63,973 nucleotides of DNA from IMG/VR virus record IMGVR_UViG_3300008114_000027, positions 1 through 63,973 of that record; one strand, given 5' to 3'. Position numbers and translations under genes: made by a program. The number at the start of each line of letters is the position of its first letter. Position 1 is the first letter of the stretch. This stretch comes from a virus (Duplodnaviria; Caudoviricetes). The notes under the pieces were generated by a model. The model made no database searches. It was not told where the DNA came from and was given only the letters and a program-made list of their open reading frames with translations. This document shows positions 1 through 48,296 of the stretch, in pieces.

Positions 1-320
1 GGTCAACTTGGTGCCTTGTGGACTCACCCCGCACCGCCCATTATCTTCCGCTCTCGCGTCCCGAAACGCGCGCGTCCATGGTGTGCGTGTGCGTGTGTGT
101 GGTGACCTTCGAGCGCCCCTGTTTCGCTCCTGATTGCCTCGTATATTTTTCACGGGTACCCGACCTGACTGTATGTTTTTTCGGCGTATCCTTCGCTCTG
201 AACGTATAGTGTTTGCAAGGGTTTGGTGTATTTTACCGCTCTGCAGCCCGCGTCAACACTCGGAAAATAAAAAAAGTACCCGCATAAATTAAGGGTTTCA
301 GAGTTTTTATGTAAAATTTA

Positions 321-353
321 TTTGGAAATTGAAAATAGTTGATAGCATATTTG
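321..353 (+). promoter_or_regulatory. Probable early promoter, Bacteroidota sigma-A type
   Basis: TTTG at 321-324, 21-nt spacer, CATATTTG at 346-353 (one mismatch to TAnnTTTG). AT-rich upstream; precedes the whole + strand gene run. Confidence 0.55.
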
Positions 354-529
354 CACCGTCAAACAACGACAACGTGCTTTTACCCTCTCACGGTTAATCA
401 AGAGGGTCAGCCCTGAGGCAACAAGGGGACGGGAGGCAGCCCGATAATACAGTCAACATGCTGTAGCAATTTAATTAGCTAAACTGCCCTGAGCCGCACA
501 AATAGTGCGGGAGCCGAGACAAGCGAATA

Positions 530-591
530 GGCTAGCTGCACAGGGCAGCGCGCAACGGCGTAAGGTGGTTCGACTCCACCGCTAGCTACTA
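530..591 (+). ncRNA. tRNA-like element (acceptor stem plus T-arm, no normal D or anticodon arm)
   Basis: GGCTAGC (530-536) pairs with GCTAGCT (581-587). T-arm GGTGG-TTCGACT-CCACC (564-580). 3' end reads A-CTA. Only 62 nt. Confidence 0.6.
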
Positions 592-607
592 ACCAAATTT
601 CAATACC

Positions 608-967
608 ATGTACAAGATTGCATTTCACCTAGCGCGCGGCGCTAACTTTCAAAAGTTTCAAATTCGTGACGCTAACAACGAAGCGACCTATATTGAGCCT
701 AACGACTTCGACATTATCCTGCACAACTGCAAACTCAAAAATCAGAAGGGCGCGTCACTGCGTATATTCAAGGGCGGCGACAAGGCACGCTGCGCGTGGA
801 TAGAGTTCGAGCGCTACGAGGTCGTAGCTAAGGGTAACTACACGTCCGAGGTCGACGTGCGCTTCAATCCTAGGGTATCACCTACGTGGAACGTCGGCGG
901 CGTCGACAATCAGGACGACAGAACATTCGCTCAACTGCGTACCAACGGCCGCAAGGTCTACAAGTAA
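608..967 (+). CDS. Hypothetical early protein (119 aa)
   Basis: ATG after AT-rich leader; first ORF of the co-oriented run. Confidence 0.8.
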   Translation: MYKIAFHLARGANFQKFQIRDANNEATYIEPNDFDIILHNCKLKNQKGASLRIFKGGDKARCAWIEFERYEVVAKGNYTSEVDVRFNPRVSPTWNVGGVDNQDDRTFAQLRTNGRKVYK

Positions 968-973
968 AAACAC

Positions 974-1013
974 AGCCCCGCCACGAGAGTGAGCGGGGCT
1001 TTGGCAGTATAAC
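974..1013 (+). repeat. Intergenic bulged-hairpin motif, copy 1
   Basis: AGCCCCGC-CAC-gaga-GTG-a-GCGGGGCT-TTGGCAGTATAAC. Confidence 0.85.
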
Positions 1014-1033
1014 TAAATCAATTTTTTTTTATT

Positions 1034-1396
1034 ATGAAAGTAGAGTTAAACATTGGGCTTGGCAACAATCCCTTCGACGCGTCAGGCGCGGCAATGCTAG
1101 CAGCTAACGTGCTAACTAAAAACGGTGCAACAGAACTTGTGTTCCGCACCTCACAGGGCACCTACGAAGAGCAGGCGGAGCCCAACGTCATCATGAAGTT
1201 TGAATGGGACGTCGAGGGCGCCAAAGCGTTCCACGCCATGTCATTTCAGGACCTGCTCGAGGCGCTCGCAGTCATCATGACTCAAGAGTGTATCGCCTTC
1301 TACGTGCAGGAGTGGAGCGACGGCGGGCTAACGTACCGCACAGGTTGGGACGGCGACCGTCTAGACTTCTCGCTCGAGTACTTCGAGCGCTTCTAA
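1034..1396 (+). CDS. Hypothetical early protein (120 aa)
   Basis: ORF bounded by two hairpin motifs. Confidence 0.8.
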   Translation: MKVELNIGLGNNPFDASGAAMLAANVLTKNGATELVFRTSQGTYEEQAEPNVIMKFEWDVEGAKAFHAMSFQDLLEALAVIMTQECIAFYVQEWSDGGLTYRTGWDGDRLDFSLEYFERF

Positions 1397-1401
1397 TCTA
1401 C

Positions 1402-1443
1402 AGCCCCGCCACTAGCAAGTGTGCGGGGCTTTCTAGGTGTAAC
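1402..1443 (+). repeat. Intergenic bulged-hairpin motif, copy 2
   Basis: AGCCCCGC-CACT-agca-AGTG-t-GCGGGGCT-TTCTAGGTGTAAC. Confidence 0.85.
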
Positions 1444-1461
1444 CAATTAAATAATTTTATC

Positions 1462-1752
1462 ATGAGCAACATGCTATCAATTCACGACGAACTAAACAAC
1501 TTCGTTGACTACTACAACTCAGATGACGAACTGCGCTTTAAAATGCGCTCAGCCGTTATCGACTACCTCCAAGAGGTGCGCGAAGAGCCGCCCACGGTTA
1601 TATTCACGAAGATTTCGTACAAGGGCGACGACGTGTACGAGAAACACTTTGTGGGCAGCCTTGACCCGTGCAAAGAAAAGTTCCTGCTCACTGACCTGTC
1701 GGCCATGGTGCACAAGTACCAAGCGCTAGGCTGCGTGGTAGTCATCCGTTAA
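1462..1752 (+). CDS. Hypothetical early protein (96 aa, MSNMLSIH...)
   Basis: Start moved to ATG 1462, which follows the repeated leader TAACCAATTAAATAATTTTATC. Confidence 0.8.
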   Translation: MSNMLSIHDELNNFVDYYNSDDELRFKMRSAVIDYLQEVREEPPTVIFTKISYKGDDVYEKHFVGSLDPCKEKFLLTDLSAMVHKYQALGCVVVIR

Positions 1753-1758
1753 TTAACA

Positions 1759-1800
1759 AGCCCCGCCGCTCACCGCGTGCGGGGTTTTGTCAGTAGAAAC
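1759..1800 (+). repeat. Intergenic bulged-hairpin motif, copy 3
   Basis: AGCCCCGC-CGC-tcacc-GCG-t-GCGGGGTT-TTGTCAGTAGAAAC. Confidence 0.85.
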
Positions 1801-1814
1801 AAATACAAATCACA

Positions 1815-1949
1815 ATGAAGTTTACACTCCTTATCGCTTCACTAGCATGCATGGTGACAAGCGCAATCATCGCTGACCTTTTCCTCTTCGGGATATCCGT
1901 AGTGTCAGTGTTCAGTTCAATCCTATTAACCTTTCAAAAATCAAAGTGA
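1815..1949 (+). CDS. Small hydrophobic membrane peptide (44 aa; not in ORF track)
   Basis: MKFTLLIASLACMVTSAIIADLFLFGISVVSVFSSILLTFQKSK; TGATG coupling to the next gene. Confidence 0.7.
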   Translation: MKFTLLIASLACMVTSAIIADLFLFGISVVSVFSSILLTFQKSK

Positions 1950-2245
1950 TGAAAAATCCATTGGAAAAGTACGCGCGACTTGACAGCGCAACAGGCAAGG
2001 GTATGAACGAGGGCTTCTGCGTCAACGACGGCGAGGCTTACTTTGCCGAGCGCGAAGACCTTATCGCTTACCTGAGAGCGCGCAATGTCGACGAGTACAA
2101 CATACTCTCGGACGACTTCATACTCGACGAGGCTTACGAACTCGAAGACTACTACTACACCGAATGGGAGGTCGAAGATGAGGACACCTACTACATTGAG
2201 GTCAACGGCGAGTGGCTAGAGGTCATCAACGCAAAGGTTAACTGA
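1949..2245 (+). CDS. Acidic hypothetical early protein (98 aa)
   Basis: Very D/E-rich C-terminal half; its stop TGA lies inside the CTGATGA core of hammerhead 1. Confidence 0.8.
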   Translation: MKNPLEKYARLDSATGKGMNEGFCVNDGEAYFAEREDLIAYLRARNVDEYNILSDDFILDEAYELEDYYYTEWEVEDEDTYYIEVNGEWLEVINAKVN

Positions 2246-2285
2246 TGAGGCTTGAGTAGCCGAAACGCCGCGAGGCGTCTTAACC
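2236..2285 (+). ncRNA. Hammerhead ribozyme, type I, copy 1
   Basis: GGTTAA-CTGATGA-GGCT-tgagt-AGCC-GAAA-CGCC-gcga-GGCG-TC-TTAACC. Complete core; predicted cut after C2279. Confidence 0.95.
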
Positions 2286-2302
2286 AATCAATAAATTTTA
2301 TC

Positions 2303-2773
2303 ATGAAAGCAAACGCAACACGCATGACTGCTGAGGCAGTTAAACAACACAGCAAACGTGGGTACAATCCTCCACTATGGGAAGAGACAGTTGACCGCTA
2401 CCTGAAGTATGACAAGGTCGAGTTCTACCTGCTAGACCGCGACAAGCACAAGTCATACGATGAGTTCTTTGTCATCTACACCTTGCCTAGCGGCTTGAGG
2501 CTCATGGGCAGCCTTTCCTACAGTTCATCACTGACAAGCGCAGGCTTTTACGAGCTAAACTTGTTAGACCACGACATGGACGCGCTTATCGAGGATGTGC
2601 TAGCAGGCAAGCCCGTAGACATGAAGGACTACCTGTTCGACACTGACAGGGTGCTGCTGCAATCCCGCACAGACGTGACCTATAAAACGACGCCCGAGGC
2701 GCGTGACTACATGACTGAAGGCAGCACTAGGTTCGGCTTCATATTCACCAAGCAATACATTCACACAGCCTAG
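2303..2773 (+). CDS. Hypothetical early protein (156 aa)
   Basis: Start moved to ATG 2303 after the ribozyme and conserved leader. Confidence 0.8.
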   Translation: MKANATRMTAEAVKQHSKRGYNPPLWEETVDRYLKYDKVEFYLLDRDKHKSYDEFFVIYTLPSGLRLMGSLSYSSSLTSAGFYELNLLDHDMDALIEDVLAGKPVDMKDYLFDTDRVLLQSRTDVTYKTTPEARDYMTEGSTRFGFIFTKQYIHTA

Positions 2774-2780
2774 TACAACA

Positions 2781-2820
2781 AGCCCCGCCGCGTAAAGCGT
2801 GCGGGGATTTGTGGGTACAA
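2781..2820 (+). repeat. Intergenic bulged-hairpin motif, copy 4
   Basis: AGCCCCGC-CGC-gtaaa-GCG-t-GCGGGGAT-TTGTGGGTACAA. Confidence 0.85.
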
Positions 2821-2831
2821 ATCAAAATACA

Positions 2832-3017
2832 ATGACAAAAATCATCATGCTCTTTTGCCTGTTCACCGGAAAGGTTCAGCAGGTCGACAACCTCTACACC
2901 GTGCACGCCGGCACCGGCACCTACGAGTATGCCTGCGAGGGCGAGGTACTCCATTGGATAGAGACAGGGACATTCAACTACGACGACAGCCTGTGCGGCT
3001 GCGGCGAACTTAACTAA
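2832..3017 (+). CDS. Small hypothetical protein (61 aa)
   Basis: ATG 2832 after an A-rich leader. Confidence 0.7.
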   Translation: MTKIIMLFCLFTGKVQQVDNLYTVHAGTGTYEYACEGEVLHWIETGTFNYDDSLCGCGELN

Positions 3018-3037
3018 TCAAATCAAATCAAATCACC

Positions 3038-3166
3038 ATGAAAAAAGTAATCATTTTAGCAATCATCATCATCGCGCTCGCGTCATGCAGCACCAAGAAA
3101 CTTACACACTCACACTACACCAAGGGGGTAACGCACGGGCAGGACGGCTGCGCGTGGCACCGATAG
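3038..3166 (+). CDS. Small predicted lipoprotein (42 aa; not in ORF track)
   Basis: MKKVIILAIIIIALAS-CSTKK...: basic N-region, hydrophobic core, LAS-C lipobox. Confidence 0.75.
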   Translation: MKKVIILAIIIIALASCSTKKLTHSHYTKGVTHGQDGCAWHR

Positions 3167-3223
3167 GTTAACTGATGAGGTCTGAGTGACCGAAACCTAG
3201 GGCTCGCGCTCTAGGTCTTAACC
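3166..3223 (+). ncRNA. Hammerhead ribozyme, type I, copy 2
   Basis: GGTTAA-CTGATGA-GGTC-tgagt-GACC-GAAA-CCTAGGGC-tcgc-GCTCTAGG-TC-TTAACC; cut after C3217. Confidence 0.95.
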
Positions 3224-3240
3224 AAATAAATAATTTTATC

Positions 3241-3414
3241 ATGACAACTTACTTCATCTGCAACACAGACAGCTACGGGCAAAGAACAGGCACCTACCGC
3301 TCCATTCAAATAAGCGAAGCCGATATAGAAACTAATCACCATGGATGGAAATTCTACAACGGCATGTTTCTTTACGAGAGCGAGCACCAAGTCATACTAG
3401 CCTGCCAAGATTAA
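3241..3414 (+). CDS. Small hypothetical protein (57 aa; not in ORF track), flanked by two hammerheads
   Basis: MTTYFICNTDSYGQRTG...ILACQD; ATG after the conserved leader. Confidence 0.75.
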   Translation: MTTYFICNTDSYGQRTGTYRSIQISEADIETNHHGWKFYNGMFLYESEHQVILACQD

Positions 3415-3464
3415 GGTTAACTGATGAGTCCTGAATGGACGAAACGTCGTGAGACGTCTTAACC
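3415..3464 (+). ncRNA. Hammerhead ribozyme, type I, copy 3
   Basis: GGTTAA-CTGATGA-GTCC-tgaat-GGAC-GAAA-CGTC-gtga-GACG-TC-TTAACC; cut after C3458. Confidence 0.95.
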
Positions 3465-3481
3465 AATTAAATAATTTTATC

Positions 3482-3856
3482 ATGAGCAAAACAACGCGCG
3501 CTATCGGACAGCGCAATTCATTCACCAAGGCTTCAGAGCCTGCACCATTCAAAGTTAACCGCTTCGAGGTAGCTAGACTAGTCAAAGCACAAACCGACGC
3601 GATAACAAGCGGCGTATGGGACTACCCAATGGATTATAAATTCGCCAACAGCGGCGAGTTATGGGACGCAGTCAACGCAGGCAAGAGCGTGCAAAAGTTC
3701 GTGCGAGAGTGCATGATTGAGTTCGGCACGATTACAGGCGCCCTGCTAGGGAGTCAATTCAACCACGTGTCGCACAGCAGCAAGCACGCCATTCGCAAGG
3801 GCGTCATGAGAGCACAGCAGTACAAACAAATCATCGAACAATTAAAAACAAAGTAA
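3482..3856 (+). CDS. Hypothetical early protein (124 aa)
   Basis: Start moved to ATG 3482 after the conserved leader. Confidence 0.8.
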   Translation: MSKTTRAIGQRNSFTKASEPAPFKVNRFEVARLVKAQTDAITSGVWDYPMDYKFANSGELWDAVNAGKSVQKFVRECMIEFGTITGALLGSQFNHVSHSSKHAIRKGVMRAQQYKQIIEQLKTK

Positions 3857-3858
3857 CC

Positions 3859-4227
3859 ATGGGATTCTTCAGTTGGAAAACATCGGACACGGACAAGTCC
3901 ATCAGCAACGCATACAGCAAGAGAGGTGCGTTCAAAGTTTATATGATAACACCTACAGACAGGTACCTAGAACAGGAGTACGAGGGCTACGGGGTATTCG
4001 GTGGCAAGGACTACTACGAGCTAGTGTACGAGCTAAACAAGTGCAGGTACCATGGTCCTGAGGACGTGGAAGACAGGTCCAAGGGGATAAGGATAGCCTT
4101 CGAAAAAAACAACAAGGGCAATCTAGTCCTGCCAAAGTTTGCCGAGAGCGAAGACGCTTCGTGGTTGGAGCTACCTGATAGCAGGATATGCGAACAGCAA
4201 GGATACTTTTACCAATCAATAATATAA
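3859..4227 (+). CDS. Hypothetical phage protein (MGFFSW..., 122 aa)
   Basis: ORF tightly packed behind the previous gene. Confidence 0.8.
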   Translation: MGFFSWKTSDTDKSISNAYSKRGAFKVYMITPTDRYLEQEYEGYGVFGGKDYYELVYELNKCRYHGPEDVEDRSKGIRIAFEKNNKGNLVLPKFAESEDASWLELPDSRICEQQGYFYQSII

Positions 4228-4237
4228 AACAGGACCA

Positions 4238-4280
4238 AGCCCCGCCACTGCAAAGTGCGCGGGGATTTGGCGGTAGAAAC
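4238..4280 (+). repeat. Intergenic bulged-hairpin motif, copy 5
   Basis: AGCCCCGC-CACT-gcaa-AGTG-c-GCGGGGAT-TTGGCGGTAGAAAC. Confidence 0.85.
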
Positions 4281-4301
4281 AATTTAAAAAACAAATACAA
4301 T

Positions 4302-4676
4302 ATGGGACGTTCAGTATCAACACTACACGGCGCTAGATTATCATCGTATATCAGCGTCGACGACGAGGCTAACCACGAATGGATGGTCGAGGACCTGCAG
4401 GAGGTAGGTCAGGAGTTAAAACTAACTAGCTGCCAACGATGGGACGGGCGCGAGGTTCAAATTATCATGTCTGGACATGGCGTAGAGGTCGGTATCTCGG
4501 AGTACTGCGGGATAGTATCGATCGGGATACGAACCGAGGAGGAGTCTGATCCGATCGGCGACAAGTGGATAGACAAGAACGGGCAAGAGATTATCAAAGC
4601 CTTTCACCATCACGGCACGCCGATACGCAGCGTCGGAACATTCAGCAACGGGGAAACTATTTACGAAAAAAAATAA
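4302..4676 (+). CDS. Hypothetical early protein (124 aa, MGRSVST...)
   Basis: Start moved to ATG 4302 after the motif and A-rich leader. Confidence 0.8.
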   Translation: MGRSVSTLHGARLSSYISVDDEANHEWMVEDLQEVGQELKLTSCQRWDGREVQIIMSGHGVEVGISEYCGIVSIGIRTEEESDPIGDKWIDKNGQEIIKAFHHHGTPIRSVGTFSNGETIYEKK

Positions 4677-4683
4677 TAGCACA

Positions 4684-4851
4684 ATGAACATTAAAGTTTA
4701 TTTCGAGACGCAATCACCCGCATACGCGGAGCACGTCGCAACATTTCACGACAGCGGGACCTACACGGCTTGCTTTCCTGCACTAGACAAACTAAGAGAA
4801 GCGAACGGTTTTGATATCATCACCGAGAGCGTAGAGGAGGACGAGTCATGA
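4684..4851 (+). CDS. Small hypothetical protein (55 aa; not in ORF track)
   Basis: MNIKVYFETQSPAYAEHVATF...; ATGA overlap with the next ORF. Confidence 0.7.
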   Translation: MNIKVYFETQSPAYAEHVATFHDSGTYTACFPALDKLREANGFDIITESVEEDES

Positions 4852-5201
4852 GCGGAAGAAAGTTTTACAACAGCGGCAGGATTGCCAACGTGTTCAGTCA
4901 TCAGGACAGGCAGCGCCTGCTACACCACCACTCGATGGTCTACAAGATTTTTGTGGAGCTAAGCGAGGCGGGCTACTGGATGAAGCCGTCACTCATCGCT
5001 GAGTTTGAGGCGTGGAGCGACGAGGTCGAGATACGCATGGGCAAGAAGCCCGACAGCGACTACAGCTACAAGGTGCTAGAAAACTGCGCGGACTACGGCC
5101 CACTCACGCTGGCCGAGTACTTCGAAACCTGTGCAAGGCACACGCTTGCTTTGTGCGAGAGCCTTGGGGCGGAGTACAACGACCACCTGCCACGGATTTG
5201 A
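4848..5201 (+). CDS. Hypothetical protein (117 aa)
   Basis: ORF in the co-oriented run. Confidence 0.75.
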   Translation: MSGRKFYNSGRIANVFSHQDRQRLLHHHSMVYKIFVELSEAGYWMKPSLIAEFEAWSDEVEIRMGKKPDSDYSYKVLENCADYGPLTLAEYFETCARHTLALCESLGAEYNDHLPRI

Positions 5202-5222
5202 TATTAGTTTGGTTACACCATC

Positions 5223-5263
5223 GCCTCGCCATCCTTCGGGAGGCGGGGTTTTGGTGGTAGAAA
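5223..5263 (+). repeat. Intergenic bulged-hairpin motif, copy 6 (divergent)
   Basis: GCCTCGCC-a-TCC-ttcg-GGA-GGCGGGGT-TTTGGTGGTAGAAA; c(UUCG)g loop, same 3' tail. Confidence 0.75.
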
Positions 5264-5287
5264 GTCATAATAAAACATAAACACAAC

Positions 5288-5455
5288 ATGAAAGTAAGGA
5301 CACGCACTATTTTAGCGGCGACATTCACCGCTTACTGTATCGCCATGGCGGTTACAATGAATGAGGCACACGAGTACAGCAAGACCAAGCGGTGCTTGGA
5401 AGAGTACGGCGAGGGCGACGTAGGGATGTGCATGTGCTATGAAAACTGTAAATAA
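5288..5455 (+). CDS. Small Cys-rich protein with N-terminal hydrophobic segment (55 aa; not in ORF track)
   Basis: MKVRTRTILAATFTAYCIAMAV...CMCYENCK. Confidence 0.65.
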   Translation: MKVRTRTILAATFTAYCIAMAVTMNEAHEYSKTKRCLEEYGEGDVGMCMCYENCK

Positions 5456-5473
5456 TTTAAACCAAATAAAAAG

Positions 5474-5803
5474 ATGAAGAGATACTTCACATACCAAAAA
5501 CAGCGCATGATATTCGAGAGCGCCATGACCCACGTCATAATCGAGGAGACCACCAATCAGACTCAGTCACTGAAGCTAAGGAAGGGGGTGCACCTCTCGG
5601 ACTGGATGATGACCAAGGAAGAGGGCGAGGCGAGGCTCGAAGAGATTGCCAAGTACGAGTGCGACGGGGCCACCATAGAAGGCGGCGCCGTCTCCAACGA
5701 GGGCAGCAGGTACCAACTGCACAGCATAGAGAACCTGAGCGAGATTGAACTACTCAAGATGTCGCGCGTGCTACCACTAACATTCAAAGTATATCAACCA
5801 TAA
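5474..5803 (+). CDS. Hypothetical protein (109 aa)
   Basis: ORF with A-rich leader. Confidence 0.75.
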   Translation: MKRYFTYQKQRMIFESAMTHVIIEETTNQTQSLKLRKGVHLSDWMMTKEEGEARLEEIAKYECDGATIEGGAVSNEGSRYQLHSIENLSEIELLKMSRVLPLTFKVYQP

Positions 5804-5807
5804 AGCA

Positions 5808-6044
5808 ATGAACATGAAACTAAAAGGGTATCAGCCTATGGCCATGAAGATTGGCAACGGCGAGGTCGGGCTAGACGACAACGACTTCATCGAGTGGAGA
5901 AATTTCTACAGGAACAAACTGAGCGGGATGTTTGTCGACTTCATGGTCGACGAGTTAGAGGCGGCCATGGAGATGGGCGAGGACGGCTTCACGCTCATGA
6001 TATATAACCAATACAAGGGGCTACTCACCCCTGCACTAAACTAA
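5808..6044 (+). CDS. Hypothetical protein (78 aa)
   Basis: Packed ORF. Confidence 0.7.
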   Translation: MNMKLKGYQPMAMKIGNGEVGLDDNDFIEWRNFYRNKLSGMFVDFMVDELEAAMEMGEDGFTLMIYNQYKGLLTPALN

Positions 6045-6050
6045 CACAGC

Positions 6051-6230
6051 ATGCAACAGGTAATCTCAAAGCAGGGGACGTTCCGCAAGGATAACTCCAT
6101 CACCGTGTTCGAGGGAGACGTCACGGTGAAAAGCGACGACAGGTACACCACCATATCGGGCACGCACTACAGGCACAACTACGATTGGGGTAACCATTGG
6201 ACAGTAAACGGAGGCAGGGTATGGAAATAG
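6051..6230 (+). CDS. Small hypothetical protein (59 aa; not in ORF track)
   Basis: MQQVISKQGTFRK...GGRVWK fills the gap between neighbours. Confidence 0.6.
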   Translation: MQQVISKQGTFRKDNSITVFEGDVTVKSDDRYTTISGTHYRHNYDWGNHWTVNGGRVWK

Positions 6231-6397
6231 ACAACCTAATACTCATCACGTTCCTGTCCTATTGGGGCAGCCTAATCCTGTTGGCTAGTCAATGGTCAAG
6301 AAGGAAACCAATCACGAGGGTATCACTCATACTCCTATCAATCGCGCTCGCGTGGTTGACAGGGTACCTAGCATGGAGTTCGATATGCGCTGGATGA
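6221..6397 (+). CDS. Small two-TM membrane protein
   Basis: Two hydrophobic stretches separated by SRRKPITR. Confidence 0.6.
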   Translation: MEIDNLILITFLSYWGSLILLASQWSRRKPITRVSLILLSIALAWLTGYLAWSSICAG

Positions 6398-6549
6398 CAT
6401 GGACAATATCTATAGCCGTCTCAGTCAGCGTGCTGTGCTGGTACTATAGCAGGGGTGGGAGGGGAGTCTTCTACCTGATAGCGGGACTCATAATGCTCAG
6501 CATCGTGAGGCCGCACGTGAACAGGGCAACCGCACGCAAGGTGTGGTAG
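6373..6549 (+). CDS. Small two-TM membrane protein
   Basis: Two hydrophobic stretches and a basic tail; start taken at ATG 6373. Confidence 0.55.
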   Translation: MEFDMRWMTWTISIAVSVSVLCWYYSRGGRGVFYLIAGLIMLSIVRPHVNRATARKVW

Positions 6550-6747
6550 CTTATCTAGGCGCATAAACTAGCGCGTGATTGATAACATCTATAAGAATTT
6601 AGGTATCGATTGAAATTATTTATAAGACTTTCGATCCCTAGTTCGTATAAAAAATGTAACTTTCAGCACGCGTTAGTTAGCGCACACTAAACCGTTTAAG
6701 TATATAAATTTCAAGCAGTTAATAAAATTAAAAACAAAACAAAACAG

Positions 6748-7152
6748 ATGTACAAGATACCAACAACATGTCTCGGGTGGATAGACCTCCTGCCCGCAGA
6801 GGTAAGAGAGCAGGCCATAAAGAACGCCAGCCCGAGGTCATTACAGGACGACTGCAACAGCATGTACGACGCATTGGCAATCTCATTCGTGTGGAAGAAC
6901 ACGCCCGAGGGCGAGGAGTACTGGAAGGATATGGCTGACAGTCACACACCAAACTTCCTCTCGTTCATAGTGCAGTTCAGGGACTGTATCAACCTGTCGG
7001 AGGTGGCTAGGTTCGGCGGCATAAAGCGCCAGACATTGGAGGACGCGCTGAGGGATGAGGACAAGCACACACCTGCCATGAACCAGCGCATCATGACGAT
7101 GTTCACTCAAATGCAGAGGGCACTCAACGAGATAAACAGCGATGAGGAGTAG
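6748..7152 (+). CDS. Protein with C-terminal HTH-like segment
   Basis: INLSEVARFGGIKRQTLEDAL resembles an XRE-type HTH. Confidence 0.55.
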   Translation: MYKIPTTCLGWIDLLPAEVREQAIKNASPRSLQDDCNSMYDALAISFVWKNTPEGEEYWKDMADSHTPNFLSFIVQFRDCINLSEVARFGGIKRQTLEDALRDEDKHTPAMNQRIMTMFTQMQRALNEINSDEE

Positions 7153-20574: not shown

Positions 20575-23500
20575 TTAGAGTTCGCAATTTACTTTTAATT
20601 TTCCTTCCTTCACCATAGCCTTCTCAATTTTATCGAAGTTATCTATGATAAAGTCTAGGTCAGGGTTGGTCGCCGCGATCTGGTCGCGTAACCTGCCAGC
20701 CATGATCCTGTCGTCAACGCTCATGGCCGATGCCTGTGCCGCGTCAACGCCTGCTATCTGGGACGCAGACCTTCTAGACTGCTCCCTAACCTTAGCCTTG
20801 CTAACTGGCCTTGACTTTGCCAACTCCTTGGCGCGTTCCTTTGCCAGCCTCTTGCCAGCCTGTAGGTCGATAGCCCTGCCGGCAGCTAGTCCAGATGCCA
20901 TCGCGTTGATGAACTCGACCACATCCTTCTTCGTGGCGCGGTCGCTGAACACGTTCATGCCAGACACTGACCTGAACACGCTGTTCACTATGTCCTTGAA
21001 CTTGTCGACAAGGGTGGTTGGAAGTTCAAGCTCTTTATCCGTCACCGCAAGCTGGGCGGTAAGCTCTGTTATGAACTCCTCGGGAGACGATTCTTTGTTG
21101 TAGTTTTCTTCCGCCCACTTCTTCAACCGGTCGATAGTAGACCCCTCAAACATCTCAAGGACCTTGTCCCTAAACTTAGCATAAACCTCCGGGTCTTGAC
21201 CGAACACCTCGAGCAGGACGTTGTGCACGAACTCGTGCGGTGCTACGGCAGCGTCGGCGTTCTCCATGTTAATGTATATGCCGTACACGTTCCCGTCCTC
21301 GTCGTAAGCAAACGCCCCGCCCTCCTTTGGGTTAAAGTCTTCGTTTCTGCCCTGAGCAACTAACGCGTCGTGCATCTCCCTTGCTGTCTCGAATACAAAC
21401 ACCGGGGTGTCCTTGCCAAATGTTTTTCTGAACGCGCGTGCCGCCTTGTCTAGGTACTCAAGCACCGCCGCCTTCGGCTGTCCCTTGTACTTATCTTTAA
21501 GCTCAGTCTTGCGAGATGGTGTATACTCCCCCGGTTTAGTCGTCGCCGTCTCTGCTACGGGCTGCTGCTTTTCAGCTGCCTTTGGTATTGTAAACGCTTC
21601 AGTTGTAGCTATAGGTTTGATTACATCGCTATCACTAAAGTCCGGGTAAATGTTTTTAAAATTCTCCTTCGCCTGTTTTTCTAATATCTCTACGATATTA
21701 CTTGGAGTGTTTTCATTCAACTCATATGAAGCAAAGGAATAGTTGTCTCGGCCTGCCGTCTTATTCTTTCTTGATGTTGCTAATTTAAGGCCGACTACTA
21801 CATACTTTTTACCACCCTGTTTTACAACCGTGGCAAAGGATGCTTTCTTTTGAACGAGGGCCGCTACTTTTTTAGAAGATTTTGGATTGAACTCTGCGCC
21901 TTTAGACGCCTGCTCTATAGCCTCCTTCTCTTCACGGATCATGCCGACCGCCTCCTCTGGGGTGGCGCCCATCTGTACAAAGGCCGTCGCCGTGTCGAGG
22001 TCATCTCCCTCAAGCGTGTCGTCGAACTCTATCACAGACATCATGGCGTCGTCGTATGCCGCCGCGTTGTCCGTCTCCTCCTCTATTGTTATAGCAGGCG
22101 CGCCGTCGAAGTCTACTTCTTGCGTGCCTTGAACCACTCCACTTGGTGTAGTCGTCTCTGTGCCTGTTCCTTGGTCAGGTTGGTTTTGGACAGTGGTTTG
22201 TTGTCCTCCGACACCACCTGATACCCCTTGCTTGTTTTTCTGATCATCTGATTTTAGGTATGGTTGTTCTACATTAAACTCTTTACTTACCTCCTCGAAC
22301 ACGGTGTCGAACATAGCCTGAGGCGCAAGGCCTATGGTCTGCTCTGCTGCCTTGAGACCCACGTCGACGCTGAGGTCGTCGTCCATGATGGACAGGGTGT
22401 CGCCGTTCGGCAGCTTCATGTTAGCCACGTTGTTCTGGTCAGGCGCCCATGACGGGTTGCTCTCCGTGTTAACGAACTCGGCGTTAGAGTCGATGTCCTC
22501 CTGAGATCCTACAACGACAGCACCCTTGCGGCCTGCCCTGTTGTTGGTACCCTCAGGGACAAACACGTAGTTGCCCTCTGGTATGGTGTCGCCGACGTTG
22601 TCGACCATCTTACCATCGGACATCTTCATCGTGCCCTTCATGCCGTTGTACGCTACGGGTATTCCTTCGGCAGCTGCTGTTCTGACGGGGTTGGCTGCTC
22701 GTTCATTTGCTGCTCTAGCCTTCTCAATAGTTCCAGCTGCGCGGGCTTGGGTAGCTGTGCTACTTTTAGTCTTCGATCTATACTCATAGTTTTCTATTTT
22801 TTGAATCCTTTCTTCTATCACCCGAGACATGCTCAGCTTCTGTTGGTCTGTAAGATCCTCCCTCTTGTCGATGTCGTCCAGCAAGGTGTACAGGTTGTCC
22901 TCTGCGGTGGCGATGTCCTTGTCGTTGACAAACTCTTCGCCCTCCATCATCGTCTCCACCTTGCCTACTGTAGGGTACACGGTTGTTACCAAGCCTGACA
23001 TTACATCTGTCCCAACATCTGTAGGCTCTGGGGCTGGCTGAGCTGCCGTCTCTTTAATTATCTTGTCCTGCTCGTATATAGACATGATCTCTTTGTCGAT
23101 GCTTTCGATATCCTCCTTGTCTAATGGAAGCAGGCCAGTCTCTTTACGTGCGTCTACAATGCTATTCTTTAACTGAATAAGGTTGAACACCCTGTCCTTG
23201 TTATCTCCTGTAAGCTCTGCGTATGACGGTATATTGTTCAGCTCGTTGGCTAATTTTGTTAGCTCACCAAGGTCCTTCATCTCCTCTACCGTGGCACCAG
23301 AGTTTGCCCAAGCCACCTGAATATCGGCGCCGTTCTCCCCCATGTTTCTCAAGGTAGCCTGCTCCTGTGGTGTTCTGTACTTGGTACCAAACTTCATCAC
23401 GCCCAAGAACGCAGGAGGAAGTGATCCGGAAATTCCACTCTCAACAACAGCGCTCATGTTCCACCCCGCGTGAAGTACCTCCCTTCCAACAACACCGTTG

Positions 23501-36113: not shown

Positions 36114-38375
36114 TTAATACTGTCTGTAAGCAAAGCCATCTATAGCGTAGAAGGTATTACCAATCTCCGAGCTTGAAACTACAATGACAGTGTTTGTGTT
36201 GAACGGAAGCGAGGTGACTGGGTCAATATTAAAATCTCCTATCACCGCCAATGCGCCGCCAATATTAACCGTACCGCCTATCTTCCAGACACCGTCGGCT
36301 GGAACATAGCACAAGTTAAATTGTATATCATAAGCGTTATCACCAACCACTAGTCCAAATACAGTTGTGTTAGTATTTGAATTTACAAATTTTATTTCAG
36401 TCGCTACGTCTGAAGCTGTTCCCTTTATATTAAACTTGTAAAATATTTTTTCATTTAACCAATCGGCTGGAATGAATAAATTGGCAGAGCCTTCCTCATC
36501 AACATAAAAGCCTAGCATTCTAAATTTATGCAAGCCGTTAACGGTAGTCGTTAAAGTGTTTACTTCGTTTGTTAGGTCTAATAAATCATTATACAAGTTT
36601 GAAATGACCGTCTGAATGTCGGTAAGCCAAGCGTTGATTAAATTTATTTGATTTCCTAAACTAGTCACCTCGTTGAGTATGATGGCAATAACATCCCAGA
36701 TGTCTTGAATATCATCAAGGTATGTGCTAGGAGTTAATGACGCTAAGAATAATTGAAGTTGGTCTATTGCATCTTGAATATCACCAGCCGCGTTTTGAGA
36801 TTGAGTTAAATACGTGGCAATGTTTACTGTGTATTGAGAATATTCTGGGAAATCCGCAATGAAAGCATCAAGCAACGCCACTATCCCGTTTAAGTCCGTT
36901 ACGACAAATCCAAACGAAACCTCCAAAGCATTTGTCCAAACCTCTAGCTGGTCAACATCATCCGCAAATGTTGAAGACGTTGGGTCTAGCGCTAGAGCTG
37001 CTGATTGTATCTGAGTTACTTGCGCTAAAATACCAAGAAGGTCTGCATCGTATGAAGCAATAGCCGCAACAATGGCGTTGTAAGCCTCTAGAGCGTCTGC
37101 ATTTTCTTGAACCGCATTACCAAGCCCGATGACTTGAAGGTTTAAATTATCAATCTCTGACTGTATCTGAGCGATTATAGACGTTGCGTCTAGGTTGCTG
37201 TTGTCAACCCAGTAAGGTACGTCCTGATTCTCATCGCAACATCCGCAGCTGCACTCTCCGCTCTCGTCAAGCACAGACTCTAGCTGAGCCACAGTCGCAG
37301 CGTACATGGCGTTGTTCCCACAAGTCTTGTACTCCTTAGCCAAGGCATACAGCTGAAGTACCATAAGTATGGTAGCCTCAAGACCGCTCGCCTGACCTCT
37401 CTGGAATGACGCGTAGTACTTGTCCTTTAAGCTCTCGATGCATGGCGTGAGACCACAGAGTGTTCCAACGCATGTTACAGCCGTCTCGCCCGTATCCCTT
37501 ACAGTGTAAGTGTAGACAAGCCCGTCGTCTTGGGTCACGCTCATGTTCAAAACAAGCACGTGAGTCCATGTGCCGACAGCAAGCTCGTTAAAGGTTAGGC
37601 TAGGAGATGTCGTGGTAACCGGGTTTGTATCAGGCTCTGGGTACAGACCGTTAGGGTAGTATCCGCTAAGTGATCTGCTCACAATAACCTGACCCGTAGG
37701 GATCACAGAGCTGTCCGCAAATATGATCTGGCCGAACTGTGTGCTCTCGCAGTCGTATGTTGTTGTCACCGCAGGGGTAACAAAGTTGCACCCGTTCCAT
37801 GTGTAAGTGCTGCCAGCAAAGGCTGCGCGGGTAACGTCAAAGGAAAAAGTTCCAGTCGGTATACCCTCGTTCACTAGGGTAGTCTGTGTGACTACGATTG
37901 TGGATATATCATCGCCCGTATCATAAGTAGCCGTAGCTACAGTGAACGTGCCGTTGTTCTCGGTCTCCGTGTTGCCTGTAGTCACGATGCTGTCTCCAGC
38001 TATCAGCACCCTACCAGCCTCGGTTAAGTCAAAGTTAAACGTTGAAGGGGCGTTCACCTCGTCAACAGACCCGCCCGTGATAGCGTATCTCAACGAGTAT
38101 GTGAACGAGTAAGTCCCGTTCAGGATCTCCCCGTTAGAATCTAATGGCAGGTTGAACCATGCGCTGTTCGTGGTGGACATCAAGTTCACCAGAGGGCTAC
38201 CAACCGTTGTCCCGGTGTAGATCGCCACGCCGGTAGGCCCGGTGACAACACCAAGACCTTTAGCGTTCAGAGCCGATAGGCTTATCCCCTCAGCCACATA
38301 GTTTGATGCGTCAACAATTCTTCCTTTCTTTGTTACCGCGTTTATTTCAAGGTATACGTTAGCTGTTAGAGCCAT
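36114..38375 (-). CDS. Structural protein with beta-rich N-terminus, CSCGCC cluster and acidic coiled coil (753 aa)
   Basis: Composition and location among tail genes; own TATTTTTG element at 38396-38403. Confidence 0.6.
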   Translation of the reverse strand: MALTANVYLEINAVTKKGRIVDASNYVAEGISLSALNAKGLGVVTGPTGVAIYTGTTVGSPLVNLMSTTNSAWFNLPLDSNGEILNGTYSFTYSLRYAITGGSVDEVNAPSTFNFDLTEAGRVLIAGDSIVTTGNTETENNGTFTVATATYDTGDDISTIVVTQTTLVNEGIPTGTFSFDVTRAAFAGSTYTWNGCNFVTPAVTTTYDCESTQFGQIIFADSSVIPTGQVIVSRSLSGYYPNGLYPEPDTNPVTTTSPSLTFNELAVGTWTHVLVLNMSVTQDDGLVYTYTVRDTGETAVTCVGTLCGLTPCIESLKDKYYASFQRGQASGLEATILMVLQLYALAKEYKTCGNNAMYAATVAQLESVLDESGECSCGCCDENQDVPYWVDNSNLDATSIIAQIQSEIDNLNLQVIGLGNAVQENADALEAYNAIVAAIASYDADLLGILAQVTQIQSAALALDPTSSTFADDVDQLEVWTNALEVSFGFVVTDLNGIVALLDAFIADFPEYSQYTVNIATYLTQSQNAAGDIQDAIDQLQLFLASLTPSTYLDDIQDIWDVIAIILNEVTSLGNQINLINAWLTDIQTVISNLYNDLLDLTNEVNTLTTTVNGLHKFRMLGFYVDEEGSANLFIPADWLNEKIFYKFNIKGTASDVATEIKFVNSNTNTTVFGLVVGDNAYDIQFNLCYVPADGVWKIGGTVNIGGALAVIGDFNIDPVTSLPFNTNTVIVVSSSEIGNTFYAIDGFAYRQY

Positions 38376-38438
38376 GGTCTTTAATATATTTTAAGCAAAA
38401 ATACAAAAACACTTTGTTAGTACAACGAATTAAAAAAG

Positions 38439-38464
38439 AAATTCCCCTCACATTGGAGGGGAAT
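38439..38464 (-). terminator. Intrinsic terminator
   Basis: ATTCCCCTC-acattg-GAGGGGAAT with a + strand A-tract, which reads as a U-tract on the - strand. Confidence 0.7.
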
Positions 38465-38533
38465 CTCTGAACCAAATAACAAATCAATTAACAAATCAAT
38501 TAACAAACCACTTTAATAGAACCACAAATATAG

Positions 38534-42162: not shown

Positions 42163-42174
42163 AGTACAAAAATA

Positions 42175-42204
42175 AATAAAGGCGGTCAATTAACCGCCTT
42201 TATT
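42175..42204 (-). terminator. Intrinsic terminator
   Basis: AATAAAGGCGG-tcaattaa-CCGCCTTTATT inverted repeat. Confidence 0.7.
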
Positions 42205-42222
42205 ATAGTTATTTTTAATCAA

Positions 42223-43155: not shown

Positions 43156-43188
43156 GTTGCATTTAATTTATGAGACAAATATAAAACA

Positions 43189-43216
43189 AAAAAAGGTAGC
43201 CTTGGCTACCCTTTTT
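43189..43216 (-). terminator. Terminator after the major capsid gene
   Basis: GGTAGC-cttg-GCTACC flanked by A and T tracts. Confidence 0.7.
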
Positions 43217-43238
43217 ATATATGATTCCTGTACTAGGA

Positions 43239-48181: not shown

Positions 48182-48260
48182 GTATGTACTATTACGGCAA
48201 AATTACTATAAATTGGTATAAAGATACAAAATTAGTTAATTTTCTTAACGACAGCTAAAA

Positions 48261-48288
48261 CAAAAACCCCTCACGGTGGAGGGGCTCT
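48261..48288 (-). terminator. Intrinsic terminator
   Basis: CCCCTC-acggtg-GAGGGG with a + strand A-tract. Confidence 0.65.
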
Positions 48289-48296
48289 TGTCATCT

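Follow-up and report, generated by a model that had tools for sequence, protein, structure and literature searches.

The RNase III signals of the T7 early genes and the lambda tI/sib element are imperfect intercistronic hairpins; once cut, they leave the upstream message with a hairpin at its 3′ end, and sib adopts its complete RNase III structure only upon read-through of the terminator. RAGATH candidates are RNAs found beside hammerheads, and pistol, hatchet, and twister-sister were discovered via the same kind of association. Arbiol et al. (2010) reportedly described composite promoter-terminator cassettes, the PeSLs, in T4-type phages.

In the sections of Comeau et al. 2014 (PMC4122927) drawn on here, PeSLs are small composite terminator/promoter sequences bordering shuffled genes of T4-type phages. 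According to the corresponding parts of Perreault et al. 2011 (PMC3088659), hammerheads in the operons of phages and prophages border individual genes or small blocks whose identity varies, and their presumed task is to divide long phage transcripts into mRNAs one gene in length. The passages of Saba et al. 2024 (PMC11685472) that concern factor loading give the ops hairpin as GCGGTAGC and describe Bacteroides opsX as a nascent pause hairpin reaching to −12 to −9 plus a sequence-specific non-template element, with the start codon at +41/+42 or +9.

Six Hairpin Copies in the Early Region of a crAss-Related Phage

The window, meaning the whole stretch of 63,973 nucleotides that we analyzed, represents a ~64 kb phage that is crAss-related by its muzzle-protein match. 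Its early-gene array is co-directional and carries six copies of a hairpin motif together with three type I hammerheads. Host RNA polymerase most likely starts on this array at the first of these two features:

321 to 353, + strand: candidate host-type promoter of the early array, TTTG-N21-cATATTTG, from sequence
360 to 600, + strand: structured, conserved leader that includes an acceptor-like stem and a T arm resembling that of tRNA (564–580), from compensatory changes relative to the related phage G001

G001 has a perfect TAGATTTG at the promoter position, and a scan of the window found no further TAnnTTTG on the + strand before position 9266. The leader ends in TAACCAAAT, the same leader as in the spacers; ARAGORN and Rfam were both negative on it. 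Relatives of this phage are present, as contigs, in one metatranscriptome.

The six hairpins proposed by a first-pass annotation are all confirmed on the + strand with our model R1 (52–69 bits), whose next best match in the window scores only 19 bits:

962 to 1022, + strand: motif copy 1, 61.7 bits
1390 to 1452, + strand: motif copy 2, 60.1 bits
1747 to 1808, + strand: motif copy 3, 64.4 bits
2769 to 2830, + strand: motif copy 4, 58.3 bits
4226 to 4288, + strand: motif copy 5, 69.2 bits
5210 to 5272, + strand: motif copy 6, 52.1 bits; a separate check of this copy gave p 0.025

The simple pattern CGCC-N6-24-GCGGGG matches nine times against 1.35 expected, a count reached in 0/100 shuffles. Every copy starts directly past a stop codon and ends 25–45 nt short of the next ATG; copy 1, for example, is flanked by ORFs 608–967 and 1034–1396.

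Copy 1 reads AGCCCCGC-CAC-GAGA-GTG-A-GCGGGGCT, with the tail TTGGCAGTATAAC. Copy 2 has the upper stem CACT/AGTG, loop AGCA, and a T bulge, and its tail CTTTCTAGGTGTAACC continues into the common leader TAACCAATTAAATAATTTTATCATG; copy 3 (CGC/GCG, T bulge, tail TTTTGTCAGTAGAAAC) has the flank ACAA paired with TTGT; copy 4 (CGC/GCG, loop GTAAA, T bulge) has the tail ATTTGTGGGTACAAAT; and the tail of copy 5 (CACT/AGTG, loop GCAA, C bulge), ATTTGGCGGTAGAAAC, is the family consensus. Copy 6 has the stem CCTCGCC/GGCGGGG including a U-G pair, a 5′-side A bulge, the loop c(UUCG)g, upper pairs TCC/GGA, the tail TTTTGGTGGTAGAAAG, and the flank CACCA paired with TGGTG. Five of the six share AGCCCCGC...GCGGGG, copy 6 having CCTCGCC...GGCGGGG instead; one base is left unpaired in each, in the 3′ arm of copies 1–5 and in the 5′ arm of copy 6. 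The upper stem covaries as first described, since CAC/GTG, CACT/AGTG (twice), CGC/GCG (twice), and TCC/GGA all stay paired. The fixed-spacing tail is likewise real: a scan of the window for TTTGGNGGTANAAAC with up to two mismatches gave matches only 3′ of these hairpins (four copies), one more copy having three mismatches and copy 2 diverging further, and when mismatches were allowed no such tail was found in the window without a hairpin.

A Phage-Specific RNA Family Defined by Its Tail

The motif belongs to a large family, of which we gathered 81 distinct copies, nearly all on contigs of uncultured viruses; bacterial genomes rarely carry it, Rfam 15 has no entry for it, and it was not found among GenBank phages. 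Rfam ribozyme, RAGATH, and JUMPstart models gave no match, nor did any other Rfam family, in line with the earlier failure to recognize a described ribozyme fold by eye. The six hairpins are true copies of an undescribed, phage-specific RNA motif, which is also present in 34–42 kb phages with HK97-type heads. The commonest protein family at motif-bearing loci occurs at no more than 12 of 64; such sparse sharing suggests either that a host factor is involved or that the RNA is autonomous.

In the family form, CCYC/GGGG makes up the base of the hairpin, the pairs above it covary, and 3–4 U, GGYGG, UA, and a leader rich in A come next. It is the tail rather than the bulge that defines the family: the bulge after which the first-pass annotation had named the motif is limited to this clade, and 40 of the 81 copies have an uninterrupted stem. 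The T run is 3 long in 28 copies, 4 in 52, and 5 in 1, and GG comes next. Tail conservation is partly ascertained because most copies were found by patterns or models that fix portions of the tail; with UA left out of the search pattern, it is still conserved after GGUGG, T following in 15/23 and A in 14/23 hairpin-bearing matches, versus 21/74 and 19/74 in hairpin-less ones.

In 58 copies the seven-pair helix is 95.3% paired (slid controls, 38–57%), and 65 cells are changed on both sides, compared with 16.0 in shuffles, none of 500 of which reaches 65. At pair 3, U-G pairs with U on the 5′ arm occur in 26/58 copies, which argues for reading as RNA from the sense strand, as the opposite strand would have A-C mismatches. 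Together with the strong covariation, these pairs bear out the suggestion, made first from the loops, that the motif functions as RNA.

The same pairs, weak in DNA and mismatched in its opposite strand, count against an element acting as DNA, be it a cruciform, a recombination site, or an N4-type hairpin promoter for a virion RNA polymerase. Such an element would suit the crAss-related nature of this phage and the coincidence of cassette-swap junctions with the elements, and, in the parts of a preprint used here (10.1101/2020.03.07.982082), a crAss-like virion polymerase acts on denatured DNA and phi14:2 lacks a detected common early promoter motif. It is nevertheless extremely improbable, given that the family extends to the 34–42 kb HK97-type-head phages, which are unlikely to carry a virion polymerase, that the large proteins of this phage yielded neither a DFDxD motif nor a PDB relative, and that a host-type promoter lies upstream of the array.

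Pairing below the stem, noted earlier in several copies, holds as a tendency. In 79 copies with distinct flanks, the mean ΔΔG of flank–tail pairing is −8.9 kcal/mol versus −6.4 kcal/mol in shuffled flanks, with 70/79 copies below their own shuffles (set-level z −10.9). There are compensated flank/tail variants (AGUGG with CCACU, GGGGG with CCCC, UCGUGG with CGAG), but covariation of this lower helix is not clean: across 32 variant-tail copies, folding with the native tail beat folding with the consensus tail in 13, fell short of it in 17, and tied in 2 (Wilcoxon p 0.32), and a Y/R table was not significant. With a lower helix of only 4–8 bp, the duplex is near the lower size limit for RNase III.

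Gene Context and Comparison with Terminators

All 64 distinct copies examined have a co-directional ORF upstream (55 scored as same/same, 5 at contig ends, 1 without an upstream call, and 3 as “opposite,” which on inspection are ORF-calling artefacts), and none of them lies at a convergent operon end. The stop codon is mostly 28–48 nt 5′ of GGGG and the next ATG mostly 26–51 nt 3′ of it. At seven loci the motif is directly 3′ of the major head protein gene, a classic site for a 3′ hairpin or attenuator, including the sole copy in each of two complete genomes; from tail to ATG, these capsid-linked copies leave only 8–16 nt. Three contigs, L201, L183, and L162, have the motif in a 5′ leader, ~40 nt 3′ of a canonical TAnnTTTG box, a location that fits an attenuator or factor-loading site better than a 3′-end former.

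Among the late-strand intergenic hairpins of this phage, six have perfect stems and T-rich runs of 5–8, mostly adjoining a TAnnTTTG box, and the motif differs from these canonical terminators, as had been proposed for plain terminators in general. That it is an ordinary intrinsic terminator, whose likeness in tail and flank reflects recent kinship through spreading mobile gene cassettes, is unlikely. It does share with Rho-independent terminators a GC-rich hairpin and U run directly past stop codons and, in some copies, stable tetraloops (GAGA, GCAA, UUCG); moreover, GCCCCGCC...GCGGGG-N-TTT occurs without the tail in more than 120 unrelated viral contigs, and the seven head-gene loci fit as well. 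However, the tail stays while the hairpin sequence changes fully, in phages without common neighbor genes; 3–4 U, then GG and the conserved tail, stand where the late terminators have runs of 5–8; the 5′ flank is complementary to sequence past the T run; and the motif occurs solely between co-directional genes, in spacers where it interchanges with hammerheads, which do not terminate. In addition, up to six copies follow one another, and six in series behind a single upstream host-type promoter cannot be efficient stops.

Promoter and Factor-Loading Readings of the Tail

A hairpin promoter with a −7 box, another early suggestion, finds little in its favor: the TA of TAnnTTTG is absent, and motif-bearing phages carry canonical TAnnTTTG promoters elsewhere, three of them the boxes ~40 nt upstream of the motif. 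The related idea of a PeSL-like cassette, in which one unit stops at the hairpin and the tail supplies a promoter core restarting transcription at the A of GGTA, is improbable for similar reasons, although the elements are the very points of cassette gain and loss, TTTG lies 6 nt 5′ of the conserved TA, and the + strand of the early array is otherwise without TAnnTTTG. Like PeSLs, as far as the sections consulted describe them, the motif is a short conserved repeat bordering small accessory genes at indel and replacement junctions of a hyperplastic early region; PeSLs have a recognizable host promoter, whereas the tail lacks both the −7-box TA and the −33 TTTG of Bacteroidota promoters, the −33 stretch being variable hairpin. 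Furthermore, the capsid-linked copies have little room before the ATG, the hammerhead spacers that alternate with the motif require read-through, and in RNA the flank pairs with the would-be promoter.

The near letter-for-letter conservation of UUU-GGYGGUA in unrelated phages suggests sequence-specific recognition by a protein, and neither termination nor RNase III accounts for it. One reading would be an ops/opsX-like pause and loading site, at which the hairpin holds polymerase, a host NusG-family factor or sigma reads the exposed non-template TTTTGGYGGTA, and polymerase becomes resistant (or sensitive) to downstream stops. A conserved host protein would fit as reader, the leader copies of L201, L183, and L162 would be well placed, and the core of copy 5, GGCGGTAG, is identical to the beginning of the E. 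coli ops element. We consider this reading unlikely too, and rank it below an ordinary terminator yet above a PeSL-like cassette. A loading site normally occurs once, within the leader, but here we find six intercistronic copies as well as single copies behind capsid genes; the 3′ half of the ops/opsX hairpin (..AGC) is not kept, position 8 being A, G, T, or C; Rfam JUMPstart gives no match; neither an NGN-domain gene nor a NusG paralogue was found in the window; and the sense-strand U-G pairs and flank pairing argue for an RNA role beyond a pause hairpin. Set against the parts of Saba et al. 2024 (PMC11685472) used here, in which B. fragilis polymerase obeys the E. coli consensus pause, the motif resembles ops/JUMPstart (RfaH) and opsX (UpxY) in its RNA hairpin, its ~12-nt sequence-specific stretch, and a start codon tens of nucleotides on, shares GGCGGTA with E. 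coli ops, and lies in a 5′ leader in some copies; it differs in lacking the GCG..AGC non-template hairpin and in its many copies per operon, between cistrons.

Interchange with Hammerhead Ribozymes

The early array also contains three hammerheads that the first-pass annotation had not recorded with the motif, in spacers equivalent to those of the motif:

2236 to 2285, + strand: type I hammerhead 1, CUGAUGAG...CGAAAC...GUC, from sequence; its core contains the stop codon of ORF 1949–2245
3164 to 3223, + strand: type I hammerhead 2, a weak HH9 match (Rfam)
3415 to 3464, + strand: type I hammerhead 3, RF00163, 29.5 bits, E 3.6e-4, under the gathering score of 34

The element 3′ of the ORF 1034–1396 family is the motif in the window and a hammerhead in G001 and G002, and the type of upstream element differs between the window and a relative for the families of ORFs 3241–3414, 1815–1949, and 2832–3017. 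In additional relatives, contigs connect 1396 with 3416 and 3466 with 2832, and junctions of cassette gain and loss coincide exactly with the elements. In a second clade, one motif lies within an array of four to five hammerheads. A likeness to RAGATH, raised at first sight, therefore holds in the literal sense: the motif occurs in hammerhead arrays of two clades, with swaps at orthologous junctions.

This shared niche and direct replacement would suit a novel class of self-cleaving ribozyme, or a dedicated nuclease guide, substituting for hammerheads, as would the conserved unpaired nucleotides (U run, UA-N-AAA) beside helices and a post-tail leader like the hammerhead-cleaved 5′ end (GUC|UUAACCAAU versus GGUG UAACCAAU). 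Such a class is very unlikely, since the motif folds into an unbranched hairpin that has a single U bulge, without the catalytic core or three-way junction of hammerheads and with no junction or covarying pseudoknot seen; its loops vary freely in the window, Rfam ribozyme models do not match, and simple pairing explains half of the conserved letters.

A Possible Role in Punctuating Phage Messages

The reading we favor, and hold tentatively, is that the motif is an intercistronic RNA punctuation element, acting as a leaky pause-type terminator, an RNase III-type processing hairpin, or both. It would be read within the sense transcript of co-directional gene arrays of Bacteroidota phages. The GC-clamped hairpin would fold first; 3–4 U followed by GG-Y|G would then set a pyrimidine-then-G step 7 nt beyond the stem, a sequence that we take to resemble a consensus elemental pause. 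We infer pausing or termination at Y, where the geometry, being that of an intrinsic terminator, would make a weak, leaky stop. In read-through RNA, the C-rich 5′ flank may pair with GGYGG to form an interrupted duplex of ~15–20 bp with the U run bulged, presumably similar in shape to phage RNase III processing signals and lambda tI/sib, and an enzyme of this type may cleave it.

Like the T7 signals and sib, the motif lies in spacers of a host-transcribed early operon and combines an imperfect hairpin with an asymmetric internal loop, and its flank–tail pairing (P1), as in sib, needs sequence past the U run. It differs from them in its short lower helix, in the near-exact U run and GGYGGUA across unrelated phages, in its Bacteroidota host, and in that cleavage is here a prediction.

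By either route, the upstream mRNA would keep a protective 3′ hairpin and the next mRNA would start with an A-rich, unstructured UA-N-AAAC leader, an outcome that the hammerheads of neighboring spacers would reach equally through self-cleavage. Because it occupies hammerhead slots between genes, the motif most likely marks the end of one message and the start of the next.

Genome Setting and the Early Array

The 63,973-base record is linear and an estimated 97% complete. Its small + strand genes run from 608 to ~11,100 and all remaining genes lie on the − strand, including those for portal, large terminase, primase-helicase, and a protein matching the crAss muzzle protein (gene calls are simple ORF chains). 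The − strand also carries a PAPS-reductase-like gene (phrog_424, E 3e-51; 60782-61687) and encodes a 1917-aa protein (20575-26328) for which PHROG, Pfam, and PDB hold no relative. Start codons follow A-rich leaders that lack Shine-Dalgarno sequences, and TAnnTTTG boxes are enriched in the window (47 vs. 34 expected), mostly ahead of late-strand genes. Both traits point to a Bacteroidota host.

No TAnnTTTG box lies on the + strand upstream of position 9266, and the full −33 TTTG/−7 TAnnTTTG pattern occurs three times in the window, each time on the late strand. A host-type promoter candidate nonetheless precedes the early array and is conserved in the related phage G001 (64.7 kb) as a perfect TAGATTTG; because this site is conserved and a conserved, structured leader follows it, the early array is most simply read as a single host-transcribed operon. 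The 3′ domain of that leader has a tRNA-like T arm (GGTTCGAnTCC, 564-580) and an acceptor-like stem, and neither ARAGORN nor Rfam returned a match across ~360-600; possible roles are a tRNA-like decoy or a signal for processing by RNase P/Z.

Features of the window (coordinates, strand, description)
321-353, +, promoter candidate of host type, TTTG-N21-cATATTTG
~360-600, +, structured leader of ~240 nt between the promoter candidate and the first gene, with compensatory changes relative to G001
962-1022, 1390-1452, 1747-1808, 2769-2830, 4226-4288, 5210-5272, +, tailed hairpin motif, copies 1 to 6
2236-2285, 3164-3223, 3415-3464, +, type I hammerheads 1 to 3 (core pattern, three matches vs. none expected)
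1440-1464, 2281-2305, 3219-3243, 3460-3484, +, four repeats of a 25-nt translation leader, TAACCAAT(T/C)AA(A)TAATTTTATCATG
38373-38536, 42160-42225, 43153-43241, 48179-48299, 52412-52541, 57528-57713, −, canonical late-strand terminators with perfect GC stems

The first-pass annotation had placed six bulged hairpins with a fixed-spacing 3′ tail at 974-5263, and all six are there. With a covariance model made from 21 copies they score 52-69 bits, and anything else in the window 19 bits or less; the tail, too, occurs in the window solely behind these hairpins. Upper stems vary in sequence among copies while pairing is kept, as the annotation had noted. Its bulge holds for the window, where all six copies leave one base unpaired at equal height (3′ side in copies of the majority type, five in number, and 5′ side in the remaining one), but not for the family, in which 40 of 81 copies have an uninterrupted stem; the bulge is a trait of the window's clade. 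Each window copy starts 5-20 nt past a stop codon and ends 25-45 nt ahead of the next ATG, and between 967 and 5290 the spacers exceeding 55 nt all contain either a motif hairpin or a hammerhead.

A Phage Family with a Conserved Tail

Searching for the stem and TTT with no tail requirement returned >120 viral contigs, just one of them with the tail, while the hairpin plus tail pattern returned 14 viral contig stretches and the GGGG plus tail pattern GGGGNTTTGGYGGTANAAAC 60 viral contigs. RNAfold closes a hairpin exactly on GGGG in 50 of 53 new viral loci. Across a 596-Gb genome collection the exact tail GGGGNTTTGGYGGTANAAAC matched 27 times, against ~35 expected by chance on our own estimate. 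Five genomes (Bacteroidota or phage-like contigs) have one or two motif copies each, and within one Bacteroidota family 2 of 81 genomes gave a match (70 candidates scored per genome). Since the motif is commoner in viral contigs and only 4-5 of the 27 genome-collection matches are true motifs, on Mucilaginibacter, Flavobacteriaceae, or phage-like contigs, the element is phage-specific.

In form, the motif is an RNA hairpin of the sense strand, followed by a conserved 3′ tail. Over 58 distinct copies the hairpin is 95.3% paired, compared with 38-57% in slid controls, and doubly changed cells number 65 vs. 16 in shuffles, with none of 500 shuffles as high. The pairs at its base are C-G, C-G, C/U-G, and C/U-G, with U-G at pair 3 in 26 of the 58; these U-G pairs favor the sense RNA strand, and we consider an element acting at the DNA level extremely unlikely. 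R2, one of our covariance models, finds more divergent copies in which the GGGG end itself is replaced (GGC, CTGC) and TTTTGGTGGTAGAA is kept. Stems measure 9-12 bp, loops 4-9 nt, and hairpin energies −10 to −18 kcal/mol.

The 81 distinct copies were mostly retrieved by searches in which part of the tail was fixed. Among them the T run is 3 long in 28, 4 in 52, and 5 in 1, tail position 6 holds T (59 copies), C (17), A (3), or G (2), and TA follows GG in 76. When CGGGGTTTTGGTGG alone was fixed, the next base was T in 15/23 hairpin-bearing matches and the one after it A in 14/23, vs. 21/74 and 19/74 in matches without a hairpin, an excess showing that conservation of UA goes beyond ascertainment. 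One GC-rich contig, L134, has a Shine-Dalgarno site; it was taken to be a probable chance match and excluded from alignments A1 and A3 and from the 79-copy flank test described below.

Rfam 15 has no family for the motif: within window 1-7000, even at E up to 10, its models match none of the hairpin copies, nor do they at gathering scores across the whole window or in 12 other loci that carry the motif. The first-pass failure to match the motif by eye to hammerhead, twister, pistol, hatchet, or HDV folds agrees with the Rfam models for these, for twister-sister, and for RAGATH, which match no copy. A blastn search of 50,697 GenBank phage records returned no copy of the motif. Against GenBank phages, 5 kb of the early array had no match; a 161-nt query matched only an A-rich leader in Cellulophaga phage phi19:1, in a region without the motif; and a 44-nt query gave chance 17-mers only. 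Four 10-mer tail strings searched in literature full text had only primers and unrelated sequences among the matches listed. The motif forms a family that is real, well defined, and apparently undescribed.

Outside the window's clade, hairpin loops fall into a few recurrent A-rich types. CUGAAAYAAAG occurs in L163, L168, L198, L202, L126, and L131 (loci, like other L numbers here, from other viral contigs) and, as C-UGAAAYAAA-G, recalls the boxB loops of lambdoid nut sites; AGAAAC/AGCAAC occurs in L172, L179, L186, and L211, its GAAAC repeating the end of the tail. The copy at L130:6753-6808, in the related phage G002, is orthologous in position to window copy 5 and has both the upper stem and the loop of copy 4 (CGCGTAAAGCG), which suggests exchange or conversion between motif copies.

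A Probable Lower Helix

Most copies have a C-rich 5′ flank predicted to pair with GGYGG and bulge out the U run, giving in most copies a predicted architecture of a 4-8 bp lower helix (P1) and a 9-12 bp hairpin with the U bulge between. The pairing below the stem claimed by the first-pass annotation is borne out as flank complementarity: in 79 copies with distinct flanks the mean ddG is −8.9 vs. −6.4 kcal/mol in composition-preserving shuffles, with a set-level z of −10.9, 70/79 copies below their own shuffles, and 17/79 individually at p ≤ 0.05, although relatedness among copies limits their independence. The mean z had been −1.14 in a previous run with 25 copies. Compensated P1 variants include AGUGG/CCACU, GGGGG/CCCC, UCGUGG/CGAG, and ACUGG/CCAGU, but formal covariation did not reach significance, either at the P1 center base (Fisher p 0.21; 18 usable of 81 copies) or in a tail swap test (p 0.32), partly because the U of GGUGG pairs with both A and G. 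On these folding models the lower helix is likely real.

Several other roles for the hairpin and tail were set aside for want of support. For a Shine-Dalgarno role, GGYGG would have to pair with CCUCC, to which it has mismatches, and its distance to the ATG is 12-35 nt; the motif has no 3′ CCA, as an RNase P minihelix would; a terminator for the opposite strand would find no T run there; and T-box-like pairing of UGGYGG with tRNA 3′ ends was likewise dropped.

Placement between Co-directional Genes

The motif is placed between co-directional cistrons. A co-directional ORF precedes each of the 64 distinct copies examined, and another follows wherever the downstream gene is known; three apparent orientation exceptions proved to be ORF-calling artefacts, and none of the 64 stands at an operon end against a convergent gene. 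For most contigs we examined the motif's flanks, and in these any one protein family occurs at 12 of the 64 loci at most. In ten records examined over their full length, of which seven are ≥90% complete, there are 1-3 copies each; records of the window's clade have 4-6.

At seven loci the motif lies directly 3′ of a gene whose representative at L188 matches phrog_10, the major head protein (E 3.4e-34), and this is the sole copy in two 100%-complete genomes of 37.6 and 41.6 kb. Another group has it 3′ of an ArdC-like anti-restriction gene. In L201, L183, and L162 it follows a canonical TATATTTG or TATCTTTG box by ~40 nt and is thus within a 5′ leader.

Exchange with Hammerheads at Cassette Borders

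Only hammerhead 3 is detected by Rfam (RF00163, E 3.6e-4, under the gathering score). The CUGAUGAG core of hammerhead 1 contains the stop codon of ORF 1949-2245.

The motif is interchangeable with self-cleaving ribozymes. The window's six motifs and three hammerheads correspond to five and four, interleaved, in G001, and a separate clade (L173, L184, L193, L210) has one motif amid 4-5 hammerheads. Behind the family of ORF 1034-1396 the window has a motif, whereas both G001 and G002 have a hammerhead, and the families of ORFs 3241-3414, 1815-1949, and 2832-3017 have one element type upstream here and the other in a relative. RAGATH are RNA motifs associated with hammerhead or twister neighborhoods, and the first-pass suggestion that the motif is RAGATH-like fits its recurrent position beside hammerheads in two clades and the junction swaps with them.

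More junctions come from relatives' contigs in public runs, compared with window 1-7000: one DNA run, the metatranscriptome X18, and two runs whose "RNA" label is doubtful. No transcript starts or ends were reported from these contigs, and coverage gaps are given no weight. In them the stop codon at 1396 is joined to hammerhead 3 (at 3416), and hammerhead 3 (at 3466) to the gene behind motif 4 in the window (at 2832), with further junctions at 596→2294, 3160→3412, 3861→4228, and 4678→4847, and single genes are deleted exactly between elements. Whole-gene deletions, replacements, and reorderings have their breakpoints at stop codons or at motif or hammerhead borders. The early region is a cassette-shuffling hot spot.

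The 25-nt translation leader (TAACCAAT..ATCATG) follows motif copy 2 and all three hammerheads, and a similar one, TAACCAAAT, lies 3′ of the tRNA-like leader. Cassette-swap junctions of relatives fall within the 25-nt leader. A short AATCA/AAATCA tandem repeat ahead of ORF 3038-3166 (3015-3037, +) varies in length among related contigs, with 5- and 11-letter insertions. A 198-nt AT-rich noncoding spacer (6547-6750, +), with counterparts of 196-198 nt in G001 and G002, closes the motif/hammerhead part of the array and may hold a second promoter or an origin.

Hammerhead arrays of the window's kind are described by Perreault et al. 2011 (PMC3088659), where they are proposed to cut long phage transcripts into gene-length mRNAs. 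That the motif is itself a new RNA-cleaving module used interchangeably with hammerheads, as a minimal self-cleaving ribozyme or as the recognition signal of a novel nuclease, seems to us quite improbable; a new ribozyme or nuclease signal as such we rate as highly improbable.

Candidate Mechanisms

The motif shares with intrinsic terminators a stable GC-rich hairpin but falls short of the ~6-8 U tract behind the stem, having 3-4 T in 80/81 copies. It is unlike the canonical terminators of the same genome, of which the six on the late strand have T-rich runs of 5-8 and often abut TAnnTTTG promoter boxes, a canonical arrangement of terminator and promoter. With six copies in one operon, each can be at most a leaky stop, and a plain terminator is an unlikely explanation.

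The reading we prefer, tentatively and a little short of probable, combines a leaky terminator or pause with processing. In U3-4 GG-Y|G a pyrimidine-G step would fall 7 nt beyond the stem, in terminator geometry, and its letters are those of the consensus elemental pause. The B. fragilis polymerase obeys the consensus pause, according to Saba et al. 2024 (PMC11685472). RNA that reads through could close the lower helix and form an interrupted duplex similar to phage RNase III signals and lambda sib; a T7-type RNase III signal has about two turns of imperfect duplex with an internal loop, to be compared with the P1 of 4-8 bp and hairpin of 9-12 bp predicted here. Either route would leave the upstream mRNA protected by a hairpin and the downstream mRNA beginning with its leader, the same outcome as hammerhead cleavage. 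In kind, the motif is most likely a phage intercistronic terminator/processing hairpin, notable for its conserved tail and its exchange with hammerheads.

The main fact that terminator and processing roles leave unexplained is the conservation of UUU-GGYGGUA, whose near letter-perfect retention in unrelated phages suggests a host protein that reads the sequence. This keeps alive an ops-like pause or loading site, to which we give a rather small probability. The motif core equals the GGCGGTA of E. coli ops, and Bacteroides opsX sites, as described in PMC11685472, share its layout of hairpin, element, and start codon. However, the nontemplate hairpin GCGGTAGC of E. coli or YGCGNAGCR of Bacteroides is absent, N-A-A-A coming after GGYGGTA; the Rfam JUMPstart model has no match in window 1-7000 or in 12 other loci; and a six-frame search for the NGN domain (PF02357) gave no match in the window but did match control genomes. 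A NusG-type factor for the motif may be host-encoded.

The first-pass idea of a hairpin promoter with a Bacteroidota −7 box is weak on sequence grounds: the tail's TTTG lacks TA, no TTTG lies upstream, and the sigma-A pattern, −33 TTTG and −7 TAnnTTTG with a spacing of 19-21 nt, is missing. N4-type hairpin promoters, read by a virion RNA polymerase, have stems of 5-7 bp and 3-nt loops and thus differ from the motif in both dimensions, and in a nonexhaustive check of large proteins for a phage virion polymerase, the 1415-aa and 1917-aa proteins showed neither a DFDxD motif nor a PDB relative. Sigma-54 or ECF promoters were also set aside for lack of support. A terminator-promoter resembling PeSL (cf. 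PMC4122927) would combine both functions in one element, and we give it a low probability.

Significance

To our knowledge, little is known of how messages are organized in Bacteroidota phages, including relatives of the abundant crAss group, whose hosts do not use Shine-Dalgarno-led translation. The motif recurs and can now be looked for by its defined consensus (CCYC-stem-GGGG, U3-4, GGYGGUA, A-rich leader), with two covariance models and 81 distinct copies at hand, and it marks gene borders in many uncultured phages. Because it swaps with hammerheads, it offers a direct handle on hammerhead function in phage operons, and because it coincides with cassette-swap junctions, it may help explain the shuffling of early accessory genes. 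If a host factor reads the tail, the motif would bring to light how phages exploit a step in the transcription or RNA decay of Bacteroidota.
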